IMG/VR virus record: IMGVR_UViG_2531839014_000003
Location: 1 to 64,000 of that record
Length of the DNA: 64,000 nucleotides
Direction: 5' to 3' (one strand)
Origin: a virus
Lineage: Duplodnaviria > Caudoviricetes
Shown: piece after piece, positions 4,945 through 54,271 of the stretch
Numbering within the stretch: position 1 is the stretch's first letter
Layout of the letters: each line of letters begins with the position of its first letter
Position numbers and translations under genes: made by a program
Notes under the pieces: model-generated
The model's database searches: none
Told to the model about the DNA's origin: nothing
What the model saw: only the letters and a program-made list of their open reading frames with translations

Positions 4945-7197
4945 CTAATTCTCTATTGCATGGTCATCTACATGAACATATCTATTCTGAAATTCATCCA
5001 ATCGTCCTTGATTCCAGCCATTTGTTGCAGTTCCAATATATCCACATGTTCGTCTTGCAACGTTCATTTTATTAGTATCCTCATTACCACAATTTGGGCA
5101 TCTCCAGCCAAGTTTTCCATCGATATCTAATAACTGGATTTCACCATCATATCCACATACTTGACAATAATCACTCTTTGTATTTAATTCAGCATACATA
5201 ATGTTGTTATAGATAAACTTAAGAATCTCCAACACAGCAGGAATATTATCTTGCATATTGCATGTTTCAATATATGAAATAGCACCTCCAGGACTTAACT
5301 TCTGAAATTTTGACTCAAGTCGTAATTTCTCAAACGGATCGATTTCTTCAAATACTGGAATATGATAAGAATTAGTGACATAATCTCTATCTGTAATTCC
5401 TTCTATTACACCAAAACGCTCCTGAAGTTTTTGCGCAAATTTATATGTAGTAGATTCCAATGGAGTTCCATAAACACTATAATCAATATTTTCATTCTCT
5501 TTCCAGTGGTTACATTTATCGTTTAGAGCTTGCATTACCGCAAGTCCGAAAGCTTCTCCTTCACCTTCATCACTATGACTCTTCCCAGTCATATACTTTA
5601 CACATTCATATAATCCGGCATATCCTAAGGAAATAGTTGAATAACCATTATATAAAAGATTATCTATAGTTTCACCTTTGTCTAATCGTGCTAATGCACC
5701 GTATCTCCAAAGAATAGGAGCAACATCTGAAGGTGTTCCTTTTAAGTGTTCGTGTCTAATACGAAGTGCTTTATGGCAAAGTTCTGTTCTTTCATCAAAT
5801 AGTTCCCAGAATTTATTGAAATCACCACTTGATGATAATGCTATGTCTGGTAGATTAATAGTTACTACCCCACAATTAAATCTACCATAATACTTATGCT
5901 TTCCTTCTTCATAGTTCTTCGCTTTTGCGATATTTCCAACACCTTTTTCTGTGAAACGGTCTGGAGTAAGAAAACTGCGACACCCCATTGGGGTATAAAT
6001 ATCCCCCTTTAATTCAAACATTACTTTTTCAGAAACATAATCTGGAACCATACGTTTAGCTGTGCATTTTGCAGCCAATTCAGTCAAATACCAATACTTA
6101 CTATCTTTCGAAATATTATCTTCCTCTAACACATAAATCAATTTAGGAAATGCAGGAGTAATCCATACACCTTGCTCATTTTTAACGCCTTGATAACGTT
6201 GCTTTAATGTTTCTTCGATCAACATCGCCAAGTCAGCTTTTTCCTGCTCATTCTTAGCTTCATTAAGGTACAAGAAAACAGTAAGAAATGGTGCCTGTCC
6301 ATTAGTTGTCATCAGTGTAACAACTTGATATTGAATAGTCTGAATTCCTTTCTTTATTTCATCTATCAAGCGTTCATTCGTAACCTTTTCTACATAATCT
6401 GAATAATTAATATAACTGCCAACTGCATTAGACTTAAGTAAGGTATCGATCTCTTGCTTTACTTTTTTTCTAATTTTCTGTCTACTAATATCAACAAATG
6501 GTGCTAAGTGTGCCAAAGAAATACTTTGGCCTCCATATTGTGACGAAGCAACCTGGGCAATAATCTGAGTGGCAATATTACATGCCGTGGAAAAGCTACG
6601 CGGTTTCTCAATTAATGTTTCACTGATGACTGTGCCATTCTGAAGCATATCTTCAAGATTGATGAGATCGCAATTATGAGTTTTCATAGCAAAATAATCC
6701 ATATCATGGAAATGCAAGATTGCATCTTCATGAGCCTGAACAAGCTCTGGCGGAAGTAAAAATCTCCTAGATATATCTTTACTTGCAATTCCTGCCATAT
6801 AGTCACGCTGCGTTGTAACCAATCTTGGATTCTTATTAGAATTCTCACTATTCCAATAGTCGTTAATGCCACCTAATAGTTCTTGAATTTCTTCATCGGT
6901 TGTATTAGACATTTCTCTCTGAAATTCTCTGGTCTTACGGTATCCTTCATACGCTTGGGCTGTAAGTACAGCATCTTTTTCGATTAGCTTCTGAAAAACT
7001 ATATTTTCAATATCATAAATACTAATCGTTTCTTCGTTACAGCAAGATTTCTCAATTTCATCTGCTATGGTATCTGCAATCTTCGGTTGGATTACACCAC
7101 CATTTTTCATTGCTTTCATGATTGCTCTTGATATTTTAGCTTTATCAAAATCCACCTCTGAACAATCTCTTTTTAAAACTTTTACCATTTTATCCAC
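4945..7197 (-). CDS. nrdD: Anaerobic (class III) ribonucleoside-triphosphate reductase
   Basis: N-terminal ATP cone, MGCRSFL, RRTCGY glycyl-radical motif, zinc CxxC pairs. Confidence 0.97.
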   Translation of the reverse strand: MDKMVKVLKRDCSEVDFDKAKISRAIMKAMKNGGVIQPKIADTIADEIEKSCCNEETISIYDIENIVFQKLIEKDAVLTAQAYEGYRKTREFQREMSNTTDEEIQELLGGINDYWNSENSNKNPRLVTTQRDYMAGIASKDISRRFLLPPELVQAHEDAILHFHDMDYFAMKTHNCDLINLEDMLQNGTVISETLIEKPRSFSTACNIATQIIAQVASSQYGGQSISLAHLAPFVDISRQKIRKKVKQEIDTLLKSNAVGSYINYSDYVEKVTNERLIDEIKKGIQTIQYQVVTLMTTNGQAPFLTVFLYLNEAKNEQEKADLAMLIEETLKQRYQGVKNEQGVWITPAFPKLIYVLEEDNISKDSKYWYLTELAAKCTAKRMVPDYVSEKVMFELKGDIYTPMGCRSFLTPDRFTEKGVGNIAKAKNYEEGKHKYYGRFNCGVVTINLPDIALSSSGDFNKFWELFDERTELCHKALRIRHEHLKGTPSDVAPILWRYGALARLDKGETIDNLLYNGYSTISLGYAGLYECVKYMTGKSHSDEGEGEAFGLAVMQALNDKCNHWKENENIDYSVYGTPLESTTYKFAQKLQERFGVIEGITDRDYVTNSYHIPVFEEIDPFEKLRLESKFQKLSPGGAISYIETCNMQDNIPAVLEILKFIYNNIMYAELNTKSDYCQVCGYDGEIQLLDIDGKLGWRCPNCGNEDTNKMNVARRTCGYIGTATNGWNQGRLDEFQNRYVHVDDHAIEN

Positions 7198-44380: not shown

Positions 44381-44423
44381 TACTCCTCCCATCATCGCTG
44401 AAAACTCGACTTTCATCTTTTTA

Positions 44424-44537
44424 TGTGGGCGGCAGGACTCGAACCTGCTCTTACTCTGTGTCGGCTACTCCCGATTTACAAGACTTGCACTTGATTGGTT
44501 CTATCGAACTAACGCCAGCTTATGCAAATGCACCCAC
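44424..44537 (-). ncRNA. tRNA-like RNA with canonical acceptor stem and T arm but non-tRNA interior
   Basis: GTGGGTG/CGCCCAC-A, GCAGG-TTCGAGT-CCTGC; 114 nt. Confidence 0.6.
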
Positions 44538-44996
44538 GTTTACACAATTCTTACGAAACCGAAATTTCAGCCTATATCAGAATTCTAACTGTACTAAAAT
44601 CCGAATCTTTAAAGGTTTTATTCCTATACTGAGCCAAACACATCCTATTACTATATAACCCGACAGTAAAAGTTTGTTCATCTTTTAACTTTGAAACGAT
44701 GTTAATATATAAATTTGGATAGAAAGGTTTATCATTTTCTTTGCACCATGCCAATACCTCATATACATTTTCGTCTTCTAAAAACTCGTCTGCTACCACG
44801 TCACCATTGGCGTCTTCACCCTCAACGATTTCAAAATACCTTTCAAATTCATCGTATGACATACACCCTAAATGAACACCCTCACCAAATTTAAAACTAA
44901 TAATGCCATCTTCTGAAATGTCAACTATATCGCACACCTCACCAACATTTGTGAATGCTCCCATAGGTTTTACTAATTTAATTTTATCTTCCTTAG

Positions 44997-50599: not shown

Positions 50600-51559
50600 C
50601 TATTCTATTTTTACTCCTATATATTCTAACACTTCTCTCATACCAAGGCCGCCATCTGATACAGGTTTCATGCAAAAATACCATAGTTCCGGATGAGTTT
50701 TCTTCAACATCTGAAATCTATTTGGCTCTTTTTCTAAATGGCAACCATAGCCACAGAAAATACAACCGGTTCTTTTATATCCTGTCGTATACCATTTACC
50801 AGTTTCATCCTGTTTAATTTCTCCATATACTGATGGATATGGTAAATGGTATGTAGCTATGTATTCTAATACATTTTGTTCAGTCCAAAATGACATTGGC
50901 TGACTTCTTTGTTCTTTTCCTTCAAAAGCATTGCACCCATATTTTATCCAATTTAATTTTCTATTAACGCTCTCTTCTGTCATTGTACCAAATATTGGTT
51001 TTAATCCTGTTCTTTTAGCAAAATTTTTGTTAGGAGTTTTCTTTAGTTTTGTACAACAATAGTCAGATATCTTAAAAGGTGCATCTACAAGAAACCACCA
51101 TTTACCATTTCCTCCAAACAAAGTATTTTCTATTTCCCCACTTAAATATTTTGCTCTTGTACACGTCTGATCATTTTTTGCGCTATTGACATATCCAGAT
51201 ATTCTCTTACTAATAATTGGATAACCGTAATTCAAAACAACATCTTTAAATAATATTCTTTTTCCTTTTCTGTCTCTTGGGTATTCTATTATTGTTTCAA
51301 CATCTAATCCTTCAAATTCTTTTTTCAAGAAATCACCATATGTCTTTACGTGTTCTCGTAATTCAGGAAATTCTAATCCTGTATCTGAAAACCACAATAC
51401 TAATTTACAATGGAACATGTCACAAACTTGTGCAGCTATATAAGCCAATACTGTACTATCTTTCCCACCACTGAATGATACATAACACTTTTTATCATTT
51501 CTCAAATACCACTCCATCAGTCTTGCTTGTGTGACTCCAACCTTTTCACCTAAGGTCAT
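50600..51559 (-). CDS. PAPS reductase-family protein (start may lie further upstream)
   Basis: SFSGGKDS, CC..LKK.P, RTGCIFC; paralog of 40905..41906. Confidence 0.85.
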   Translation of the reverse strand: MTLGEKVGVTQARLMEWYLRNDKKCYVSFSGGKDSTVLAYIAAQVCDMFHCKLVLWFSDTGLEFPELREHVKTYGDFLKKEFEGLDVETIIEYPRDRKGKRILFKDVVLNYGYPIISKRISGYVNSAKNDQTCTRAKYLSGEIENTLFGGNGKWWFLVDAPFKISDYCCTKLKKTPNKNFAKRTGLKPIFGTMTEESVNRKLNWIKYGCNAFEGKEQRSQPMSFWTEQNVLEYIATYHLPYPSVYGEIKQDETGKWYTTGYKRTGCIFCGYGCHLEKEPNRFQMLKKTHPELWYFCMKPVSDGGLGMREVLEYIGVKIE

Positions 51560-51762
51560 TGATTGAAGTGCTTTAAGTTGTTCAAGAGTGTGCTTATTAT
51601 CATATGAATTAAAATTTTCAACAGAGTTTTAGCGGTTGCAAACGCTGTAAATTCAATGATTATAAGGAAGGGAATACAAGTATTACCGGTAAAGATGAGA
51701 ATATTCTCCTTGTAAATTAAAGAGATTTGAATAGAGAAGAAGATAAAAATTTTATTTTCTAC

Positions 51763-52491
51763 CTACTTATTCTCTTTTTCTTCTCTAAATTTCTTTTCAA
51801 AATACTCAATGCCCTTGCCTTTATACGGAACCTGGCATGTATCTTCGTACCATTTCAGTTTATCCCAATATCCCGGCAGTTTCTCGTAAATATTACGAAG
51901 CTCTTTCTGATTCTTATTCCCACAACACCAACAAGAAACCCTATCCAAAAGCACATATAACTCATATCCATTTTCCTGCCAGCTCCATCCGTTTTCATAA
52001 CAATATTGCAAACAGTCTTTCTCCGACATATTTCATTCAGAAAGTGGATAAACTTTTATATTCTTGTCACGCTTAGTTCTATACTTCTCTATTCGCTGTG
52101 GTTCATCAGCAGCTACGCCAACATATTCTACAATTACTTCATTACCATAATTCTCTTTGTAGTGTTTTTTAATTGCAGATAATTTTCCAGAAGTTCCCCA
52201 TCTAGCCATTCCACCACACCAATTATACCCGCGTTTAATAAGTCCACTTCTGGCCTTTACTTCTTTTTCAAATGCACGATATGTAAAAGGAAGAACATCT
52301 TTTAACACTGTAAACTTAATTTTCTTTTCTTCTAAAATCTTAGATAGTTTATCTCTATTATTATAAATTGCCTGGAACTCCATTTCCGTGTCATAAAAGA
52401 TAACCTCATCTAACGGATATCCTTTTTCAATCAACAATAGAACCATTGCTAAACTATCTTTCCCAAAACTACAGCTTGCTATATACTTCAT
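51763..52491 (-). pseudogene. PAPS reductase-family gene interrupted by an in-frame TGA
   Basis: SCSFGKDS; PLSE*NMSEKDCL versus PLSEWNMSEKDCL in the neighbouring paralog; RVSCWCC. Confidence 0.8.
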
Positions 52492-52631
52492 ACCAGCCAC
52501 TTACCTTATGGTGCGTGGTAAACGATATACCCTCCCATGCCCACAATTAAGTGGGCGCTGCTATTATCGTCTTTATGTTGAGTTATGCAGTCTCACAACA
52601 ACCGGTTTCACCGTATAGGTATTACTCCTTC

Positions 52632-53348
52632 CTATTTTTTATTTTCATTTTCAACTTCTCTCTTAAACCTTTCTTCTAGTTCAAACACTGATTTACCTTC
52701 GCCTTTCATAGGCTCGTCAATCCTGCTTTGCAACCCTTTCAGCATCTTCCAATATTTAGGAAGATATAAATACATATTTTTAAGTTCTTTAAGATTTTTG
52801 TTTCTACACGACCAGCAACTTACACGGTCTAATATAGAATACAAATCAACTCCGTCCTCTTCCCAAGTGATATCGTGCTTGTAACAATAATCAAGACAAT
52901 CCTTTTCAGACATATTCCACTCTGATAAAGGAGCTATTTTGTTGTAATCTAACTTCTGAAGTCTCTTAGTTTCATCTGATGCTATACCAACGTACACAAT
53001 AGAATCTTTCGTATATTTGTTGCATATTGCTTGTTTTTTAAATGTATGCCATCTACAAGTTCCACCACAATATCCATCTCCATATACTATTTCTCCAGTT
53101 CTCTTTTTCTTTTCACGAATAAGCATGTCTATCCAAAACGGATTTTCGGGTTTTAATTCTGTATATTTAATGTTATTCTCTTCTAACACCGGAATAATTT
53201 TATCTCTCACATCATAAACTGCTTTAAACTCCATGCCAGTATCGTAAAATATCACTTCGTCAAGAGGATATTTTTTCTCAATTAACATCAATATCATAGC
53301 TGTGCTGTCTTTCCCCCAGCTACAACTTGCAATATATTTTTCTTTCAC
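52632..53348 (-). CDS. PAPS reductase-family protein
   Basis: SCSWGKDS, YDTGMEF, RVSCWSC; probable GTG start at 53348. Confidence 0.85.
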   Translation of the reverse strand: MKEKYIASCSWGKDSTAMILMLIEKKYPLDEVIFYDTGMEFKAVYDVRDKIIPVLEENNIKYTELKPENPFWIDMLIREKKKRTGEIVYGDGYCGGTCRWHTFKKQAICNKYTKDSIVYVGIASDETKRLQKLDYNKIAPLSEWNMSEKDCLDYCYKHDITWEEDGVDLYSILDRVSCWSCRNKNLKELKNMYLYLPKYWKMLKGLQSRIDEPMKGEGKSVFELEERFKREVENENKK

Positions 53349-53534
53349 ACCAACCACTAACCATATTCTAGTCAATGGTAATTATCTTCTGCTGACAAAT
53401 CGGCCAATTGTTATACTTTTACTATCACACACATTAATCTGAATTGTGATAAACCTAGTTTCACTAGGATAAGGTGTTACTCCTTTCTTTTCTTCTCATT
53501 GTCTTATTCCTACTTTCTTACTTTTCCAATTAAA

Positions 53535-54271
53535 TTGAATTTTCAAGCGATACCACTTAAAAAAATCAAAAACTATGTAATCTATTGTGATATCCCTTAT
53601 CGTGGAACTACTAAATACGCTACTAATTCGTTCTCATATGAAGAATTTTATGAATGGGTAAAAGTAGCGAGCATGAATAATACAGTTTTGATAAGTGAAT
53701 ATTCAATGCCTGATGATTTTACTTGCATTTGGCAAAAAGAAACCAAGACATTATTGGATAGTAACAAAAATAAGGATGATAAAAACAATATAAGGGTTGA
53801 AAAGTTATTTACGTATATTAGATAAAAATTCAAATTTATAAACTTTACATCTTTGATGTTTGGTATCTGTTTTTTTAAGTTTCTAATAGCACCAGCAGAC
53901 CATTTCCCGCTATTATCACCTTTAGAATCTCTTGCATAACCACCGAAATATTTTGCACCGAAACTTGCACAAAATCCTACAAGACCTAAGTACCAATCTG
54001 GATAATTTTCTTTGTTCTGCTGAACTTCCTTATATTCATTCTCTAAGATTCTTTCTGGCAATTCAGTTTCATGTTCCTGTGCATATTTTAATAATTCGAT
54101 CAACTGTTTATGTATGTCACAACCTATTCTTTTCTTATGCTTAATCTTATCAATCATGTTTGCACCACCAACAAAAGGCTCTAGATAACCATTTGTGTCA
54201 TCAGTTATATAAGACTGAATAATTGGCGCTAAATCCTTACTTAATTTGTTCTTACTTCCAACGTATCTTAT
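53535..54271 (-). pseudogene. Dam/D12-class N6-adenine methyltransferase split by an internal inversion
   Basis: YVGSK and EPFVGG on minus strand (54271-53825); YCDIPY, ISEY, EKLF on plus strand (53544-53825); re-inversion gives a 242-aa ORF. Confidence 0.88.

Follow-up and report, generated by a model that had tools for sequence, protein, structure and literature searches.

How a phage gene is translated when the only strong Shine-Dalgarno (SD) sequence in its leader lies 131 or 133 nt from the start codon is the question raised by two genes in a 64,000-nucleotide stretch of viral DNA (Duplodnaviria; Caudoviricetes; IMG/VR record IMGVR_UViG_2531839014_000003, positions 1 to 64,000), the whole of which is referred to here as the window. 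The two genes, A and B, are tandem paralogues on the minus strand that encode PP-loop proteins resembling 3′-phosphoadenosine 5′-phosphosulfate (PAPS) reductases, and each is preceded on the same strand by a leader (52489-52630 upstream of gene A; 53346-53485 upstream of gene B). The initial annotation, made from the sequence alone, had proposed that both leaders contain the same structured RNA, inserted between SD and start codon. The proposal holds up as a real and statistically robust observation, and it extends to a whole family of phage leaders. The element probably, though by no means securely, acts in cis on translation, the folded RNA joining the halves of a split ribosome-binding site.

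The features that the annotation had described as shared by the two leaders are borne out. Reading of the sequence places AAGGAGTAA(T/C)ACCT in both, followed by a GTGAAAC-capped hairpin built on different stems (CGG/CCG in leader A, CCTAG/CTAGG in leader B) and then by GUU. A second hairpin precedes ATAAAG (A) or GTAAAAG (B), and TACCA...GGT(A/T)AGTGG(C/T)TGGT abuts the ATG (52491, leader A) or GTG (53348, leader B). At the RNA level the order is AAGGAG-UAA-(U/C)ACCU, capped hairpin, second hairpin, variable middle, 3′ motif and start codon. Counted from the final G of AGGAG, the start codon is, as claimed, 133 nt away in leader A and 131 nt away in leader B. Neither gene has an SD match of at least 5 nt within 20 nt of its start; most other genes of the window carry such a match ~5-9 nt before theirs. 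The minimum free energy (MFE) folds of the two leaders share one layout of helices P1 to P5, closed by the 5-bp helix P1 (AUACC/GGUAU in A, ACACC/GGUGU in B), with z-scores against shuffled sequences of -2.2 (A) and -2.8 (B). The parts of the locus are the following.

53480-53485, minus strand: distal SD of leader B, AAGGAG, read from the sequence within AAAGAAAGGAG; unpaired in the MFE fold and followed by UAA at 53477-53479.
53473-53477, minus strand: 5′ strand of P1 in leader B, ACACC, whose first A is the last base of the UAA.
53454-53468, minus strand: P2 hairpin of leader B, CCUAGU-GAA-ACUAGG, with the GUGAAAC cap (MFE fold, family alignment).
53423-53451, minus strand: P3 hairpin of leader B, UAUCACA...UGUGAUA, followed by GUAAAAG at 53416-53422.
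53380-53415, minus strand: variable central P4 region of leader B (family comparison).
53353-53379, minus strand: P5 hairpin of leader B, ACCAUUGACUA...UGGUUAGUGGU (MFE fold, family alignment).
53347-53351 (feature 53346-53351), minus strand: 3′ strand of P1 in leader B, GGUGU, overlapping the GUG start at 53346-53348.
52632-53348, minus strand: gene B, with a GUG start, encoding a 238-aa PAPS-reductase-like PP-loop protein (phrog_424, Pfam PF01507).
52625-52630, minus strand: distal SD of leader A, AAGGAG, 1 nt past the TAG stop of gene B (52632-52634) and followed by UAA at 52622-52624.
52618-52622, minus strand: 5′ strand of P1 in leader A, AUACC (MFE fold, family alignment).
52603-52613, minus strand: P2 hairpin of leader A, CGGU-GAA-ACCG (MFE folds).
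52577-52599, minus strand: P3 hairpin of leader A, GUUGUGAG...CUCAAC, followed by AUAAAG at 52571-52576.
52522-52570, minus strand: long 'type 2' P4 hairpin of leader A, with the internal motifs AGCAGCG and GCAUGGGAGG (MFE folds, family comparison).
52497-52518, minus strand: P5 hairpin of leader A, CCAC...GUGG (MFE folds, family alignment).
52490-52494 (feature 52489-52494), minus strand: 3′ strand of P1 in leader A, GGUAU, overlapping the AUG start at 52489-52491.
51763-52491, minus strand: gene A, with an AUG start, the PAPS-reductase-like paralogue of gene B (Pfam PF01507, phrog_424).

With zero mismatches allowed, the 13-mer and 14-mer end motifs occur at only these two sites of the 64-kb window, and a covariance model built from 17 sequences recognises leaders A and B as the only two copies in the whole 165-kb record. 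Relatives were gathered by pattern. Three scans of IMG/VR viral contigs, anchored on both ends, on the 5′ end only or on the 3′ end only, returned matches that include ~40 real copies. A metagenome scan with a pattern that starts at AAYACC and requires neither the SD nor the 3′ end yielded 96 stretches; the covariance model scored 75 matches in 80 of them, at up to 140 bits. An extra 3′-anchored scan added variants with GUAGAC or GUGAAGC as the P2 loop. Members range from ~125 to ~260 nt, and nearly all of this variation falls in the central P4 region, which spans ~10 to >120 nt.

Within this family the proposed helices are strongly supported. Independent MFE folds place P1, P2, P3 and P5 alike, with the SD unpaired, in 15 of 17 diverse members. 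A model-based alignment of 58 distinct sequences has a standard pair in 96.6% of the modelled cells. Shuffling of the 3′ letters gives 80.3% (none of 500 shuffles reaches the observed value), and sliding the 3′ partners by 1-3 columns gives 32-44%. The check for covariation came out clearly: all seven P3 pairs covary, any one of them showing as many as six pair types, P2 is fully (100%) paired throughout the family and has three covarying pairs, and P1 is 99% paired across the 58 sequences, again with covariation. Since G-U pairs are frequent in P3 and P5, the structure exists on the sense strand only, which points to RNA. The junctions are conserved as well, in the bases GUU, GUAAAAU, GUGG, AAUCU and AUU-ACCAC.

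The covariation extends into the start codon. Between leaders A and B a compensatory change in the start codon itself had been pointed out, and the same exchange runs through the family: among 57 distinct sequences the first base of the start codon takes part in a P1 pair that is U-A in 33, C-G in 23 and another combination in one. As the U-A pair corresponds to an AUG start and the C-G pair to a GUG start, the choice between AUG and GUG follows a partner base ~120-250 nt upstream. On a maximum-likelihood RNA tree inferred without the two P1 columns, each column switches at least seven times and always jointly with the other, well-supported branches of that tree holding only two of these at least seven switches. 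An in-frame GUG 9 nt upstream was considered as the true start and rejected, as it falls out of frame in three members that are 1 nt shorter (L019, L051, L055). The PP-loop motif occupies residues 7-15 of the protein that starts at RUG.

The distal SD is retained as well. Although the metagenome scan did not require it, AAGGAG, AGGGAG or GAGGAG is present in nearly every match, often extended to AGAAAGGAG, and its end lies 1-5 nt, usually 2, from P1. The linear gap to the start codon is roughly 120-255 nt in the relatives. Across the family this SD has no start codon at a working linear distance, and the start codon has no SD at a working distance. Because the linear gap is too long both in leaders A and B and in their relatives, the SD would be unusable unless the RNA is folded.

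It is proposed, on these sequence grounds, that the leader forms a multi-helix junction of P1-P5 braced by at least one pseudoknot. P1 joins the stretch directly 3′ of the strong, unpaired SD (AAGGAG-UA-AYACC) to GGURU, the final two bases of which also begin the start codon, and sets the base after GGAG-UA opposite the U of that codon, so that SD and start codon come to lie at the base of one helix in the folded RNA. Fraying of the last one or two P1 pairs would give a path SD-UAAY-(helix end)-RUG with an effective spacing of ~5-9 nt, and the natural variation of 1-5 nt between SD and P1 should still be within the usual spacing tolerance. A 30S subunit docked on the SD could then capture the start codon. 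The pairing data support a P1 that would both unite the two halves of the ribosome-binding site and partly bury the start codon, and translation would be expected to depend on the fold. The annotation had left it at folding that joins or hides a split site. The conserved structured RNA between SD and start holds, and of the two roles joining is the more probable.

The closest known mechanism is that of genes 38 and 25 of phage T4, whose initiation regions are likewise split. A hairpin brings SD and AUG to 5 nt from each other instead of 22 (gene 38) or to 11 nt instead of 27 (gene 25) and is needed for efficient initiation, its destabilisation lowering initiation (Nivinskas et al. 1999; Malys & Nivinskas 2009; reviewed in PMC3014915). 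As in those genes, the linear gap in leaders A and B (133 and 131 nt, with no nearby SD) is too long, the intervening structure closes it, and the setting is a phage intercistronic junction; P1 closes the whole insert in the MFE folds and is 99% paired in the family. Unlike the simple hairpins of T4, with gaps of 22-27 nt, the elements described here span roughly 120-255 nt and comprise five helices, one or more pseudoknots and conserved junctions, the start codon lies within the closing helix, and the RNA accompanies one enzyme family across many unrelated phages.

Several points weigh against a fold that serves to join the site. On its face, the pairing under selection of the first two bases of the start codon favours occlusion over presentation. 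Plain bridging needs neither five helices nor pseudoknots nor conserved junctions, since a hairpin suffices. Most sequences were gathered by patterns fixed on P1-P2 or on the 3′ motifs, so the conservation of these parts is inflated and overstated by the way in which the collection was made; the bias does not touch the SD, P3, P5, the junctions or the pseudoknots. Lastly, the pseudoknot described below is not evident at the family columns in leaders A and B.

The first of these points is the core of an alternative that we consider rather unlikely, namely an OFF-type translational riboswitch or protein-binding operator, in which the domain is an aptamer, a ligand-stabilised P1 sequesters the start codon and the upstream AGGAG serves the upstream open reading frame (ORF) or ribosome standby. 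The strictly maintained Y:R pair at the start codon would fit it, as would the aptamer-like junctions (GUU, GUAAAAU, GUGG, AAUCU) and pseudoknots and the strict tie of the RNA to one enzyme family. However, no SD is in reach once P1 opens, so that, in a host that depends on SDs, occlusion would have no ON state. Moreover, the distal SD keeps its place 1-5 nt from P1 whatever lies upstream, even where there are only mini-ORFs. SAM-II and preQ1-II are translational riboswitches with the ribosome-binding site in P1 or in a pseudoknot, and there folding hides a contiguous site. The leaders share with them an aptamer-like cis-acting leader, a pseudoknot, bases of the ribosome-binding site in the closing helix and a strict link to a gene family; they differ in that folding is here apparently needed to assemble the site, and in having no match in Rfam. 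Attenuation of transcription is unlikely, as no terminator-like sites occur inside the leaders.

A second alternative starts from the UAA that overlaps P1. In all 53 assessable contexts an upstream ORF crosses the SD and ends at this UAA or up to 12 nt later (17 genes of at least 60 aa and 36 mini-ORFs, 20 of the latter with an SD-like site of their own). Ribosomes might stop at the UAA, remain bound through the SD and begin again at the RUG opposite. Such long-range termination-reinitiation is nevertheless an unlikely reading. Conserved structural bases leave only one of the three frames open at this site, so an upstream ORF ending there is expected by chance; the UAA is not universal, being GAA or absent in several members (L076, L145, L120, L092, L118); and P1 and P2 would not stay folded under a ribosome that stands at the UAA. 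There is some likeness to ribosome shunting on the 35S RNA of cauliflower mosaic virus (CaMV) and to the bypass in T4 gene 60, where a short ORF or a stop lies at the foot of a compact structure and translation resumes beyond it. The CaMV shunt depends on eukaryotic scanning, and gene 60 on peptidyl-tRNA retention with matched take-off and landing codons, neither of which applies here. No matching GAG landing codon precedes the start, and the upstream ORFs are either unrelated to the downstream protein, which starts at RUG, or only mini-ORFs.

The bracing of the junction assumed in the proposed bridging fold rests on a scan of all column pairs of the alignment, which revealed that the 5′ part of the P3 loop can form three successive antiparallel pairs with the junction between P4 and P5 (J4/5). 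Pairing between columns 45-47 and 306-308 reaches 92.8%, and each of the three pairs covaries, with the combinations GGA/UCU, GGA/UCC, AGU/ACU, CGA/UCG, GAU/AUY and AGG/CCU, which indicates a candidate pseudoknot. Type 1 members show a further pairing, between RAUG in the 3′ part of the P3 loop and CAUY in J3/4, covarying as GAUG/CAUC, AAUG/CAUU, GUUG/CAAC and GAC/GUC. Taken over the whole alignment, with all subtypes, this second pseudoknot is paired in 59% of cells, and it is offered only as a probable feature of the subtype. The GGAG-N7-AUG within the P3 loop was tried as a real initiation site and discarded: some members have AUA or UUG in place of its AUG, or lack it altogether, L097 has one more base and so a shifted frame, and the same bases covary with J4/5 and J3/4 as pseudoknot strands. 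Long P4 arms (L051, the L011 family, L018/L093) carry UAAGG...CCUAAAC, and P2 ends in GUGAAAC; we take the former to resemble the 11-nt receptor of the GAAA tetraloop and the P2 loop to be GAAA-like, in which case a tetraloop-receptor contact may form, only in the larger variants. One deletion variant (L032, ~6990-7060, minus strand; L110:12645-12758) keeps the SD, the 5′ strand of P1, P2 and half of P3, and its deletion joins the P3-loop sequence GGAGAAC-GACG-AUG straight to the PP-loop gene. By its sequence the pseudoknot strand would now be an ordinary ribosome-binding site, with the element bypassed.

This variant also bears on a further suggestion of the initial annotation, that the RNA might be excised. 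The leaders do resemble an insert in a standard AAGGAG-UAA...AUG gene junction, and an allosteric group I ribozyme with a c-di-GMP-II riboswitch in Clostridioides difficile, a system ascribed to Lee et al. 2010, reportedly assembles a ribosome-binding site by splicing. In both cases a structured RNA lies between SD and start, and the site would become functional only after the RNA acts. Unlike the C. difficile RNA, which is spliced out, the present element has no intron features and most likely works by folding alone. Neither a group I core (P3-P9, with the G-binding site of P7) nor group II features (domains I-VI, 5′ GUGYG) were found, no Rfam intron matches, and the smallest members, at ~125 nt, could not accommodate a group I or II core. 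The ends of leaders A and B do not, by eye, fit the expected splice-site consensus. After a cut at the foot of P1, SD and start would be just ~2 nt apart, the element is limited to one gene family rather than scattered, and the sole variant without most of it (L032/L110) is an imprecise deletion. On account of the size, the missing intron features and the poor ribosome-binding site that would be left behind, removal of an intron-like insert that rebuilds a normal site is highly improbable.

The proteins encoded downstream of the RNA form a single family. All 40 distinct ones match phrog_424 (PAPS-reductase-like, PP-loop), even though its subfamilies downstream of the RNA share only 14-20% identity and RNA subtypes are mixed across protein subfamilies. 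The genes upstream vary (another PAPS reductase, YopX, or unknowns). An AlphaFold2 model of the gene B protein (predicted local distance difference test score 90) has an ordinary PP-loop/PAPS-reductase fold, with PAPS reductases as its nearest fold neighbours (Z ~12) and tRNA thiolases and TilS close behind, TtuA and NcsA also being neighbours. The closest solved relative by profile is 'PptA' (PDB 21fy, E = 1e-56), a structure that postdates the fold library used for that search. The CWFSCGISS subfamily (CWFSxGxSS; L007:3461-4162 and relatives) is ~45% identical to chain C of PDB 21fy, and PptA is the best lead to the substrate of the enzyme. The genes sit among methylases and suspected anti-defence genes; their earlier description as DNA-modification genes is a guess.

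The kinship with enzymes acting on tRNA, as many PP-loop enzymes do, invites the idea that the element is a free-standing non-coding RNA that merely shares the transcript, be it a tRNA-like substrate, a cofactor, an enzyme decoy or an anti-defence RNA. Its compact multi-helix fold, GNRA-like loop and receptor-like motif would be in keeping with such a role. However, a free-standing RNA would have no need of a closing helix that uses the start codon and the flank of the SD and that covaries with the choice of start, and we give this idea little credence.

In the proposed bridging leader, folding itself may be gated. The five helices, the pseudoknot and the conserved junctions, together with the link to one enzyme family despite varied upstream genes, are the reasons for this suspicion, since the complexity is that of an aptamer and riboswitches and autoregulatory leaders typically show linkage of this kind. 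Possible gates are the PP-loop enzyme, a metabolite connected with it, or ribosomes that complete the upstream ORF at the UAA. A riboswitch and an autoregulatory element, both of which the annotation had named as candidates, would each fit the conserved junctions and the pseudoknot, and the leaders have in common with riboswitches an aptamer-like conserved 5′ region whose five helices and pseudoknot covary and which precedes phrog_424 genes in 40 of 40 cases. A gated, riboswitch-like version of the element is plausible. Its more specific form, a riboswitch-like class with a new expression platform in which a metabolite or the PP-loop enzyme stabilises the fold and translation is switched ON by folding, is put forward only tentatively; in it the fold may also let post-termination ribosomes cross the 120-250 nt of RNA.

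The family is previously undescribed, being absent from Rfam 15 and from the papers searched. An Rfam comparison, which could have removed the novelty, gave no relevant match for either leader at gathering or permissive thresholds: at gathering thresholds only two tRNAs were matched in the whole window, and a permissive scan of 52300-53700 gave no match with E < 3 and none overlapping more than ~17 nt of either leader. Literature on PAPS reductase with riboswitch, RNA motif or structured RNA does not describe the element, and the single paper that combines all those topics deals with Aca-binding motifs. A blastn search with one leader matched none of 50,697 GenBank phage records, and one with the gene region matched only the neighbouring methylase. 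Species-representative prokaryotic genomes (one per species), scanned with the strict 5′ motif only, gave 10 pattern matches, none of which passes the covariance model and which we regard as chance. As neither search gave a real copy, the family seems confined to uncultured phages. The metagenome copies are on gut and rumen contigs, many of them from human gut assemblies by their contig names, and this origin, with the SD-led gene starts, suggests a Firmicutes host. The gene B protein, used as the query of a locus search, recovered one remote stretch only. In L156 (1589-1675, minus strand) a second, 87-nt mini-copy with the SD, P2, P3 and GUAAAG, and lacking P4 and P5, comes directly after the first PP-loop gene, with only a 9-codon ORF behind it; it is probably a decayed remnant.

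Bacterial ribosome-binding sites are, to our knowledge, normally treated as contiguous, and only two small structure-bridged examples, both from T4, are commonly cited. The present leaders would extend the same split geometry to a much larger scale, with more than 100 copies in gut and rumen phages, covariation that reaches into the start codon and a complexity that matches an aptamer. If folding is gated, they would represent a new kind of expression platform and a candidate orphan riboswitch, and they might help to identify what the widespread 'PAPS reductase' (phrog_424/PptA-like) enzymes of phages act on. Gene callers and start predictors based on ribosome-binding sites will mis-call the starts of these genes.

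Some further observations concern the genes around the leaders. Gene A encodes 242 aa only with readthrough of an in-frame TGA (52033-52035, minus strand) at codon 153, where a Trp is conserved; gene B has PLSEWNMSEKDC there, and the close relative L003 has W at the same position. Under genetic code table 11 gene A is two ORFs, of 155 and 88 aa. The TGA could reflect a recent nonsense mutation, read-through or the use of TGA for Trp, and the window contains no suppressor tRNA, only tRNA-Met and tRNA-Gln(UUG). A GC-rich tRNA-like sequence ending in GGTTCGAGTCCTGCCGCCCACA is also present at 44400-44570 (minus strand) and is not called as a tRNA by ARAGORN.

A third PAPS-reductase-like gene (50600-51559, 319 aa) is without the conserved RNA: its 200-nt leader (51560-51762) has no covariance-model match and its fold is not significant (z = -1.5). 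This leader starts with AAGGAG, far from any start codon, and a relative in L135, 45% identical to the third gene, does have the RNA element. Finally, a Dam-type methylase (53499-54260) is apparently split by an inversion, its N-terminal half (EPFVGGANM...FINLNF) lying on the minus strand down to ~53830 and its C-terminal half (YCDIPY...) on the plus strand at 53540-53825, directly upstream of leader B.

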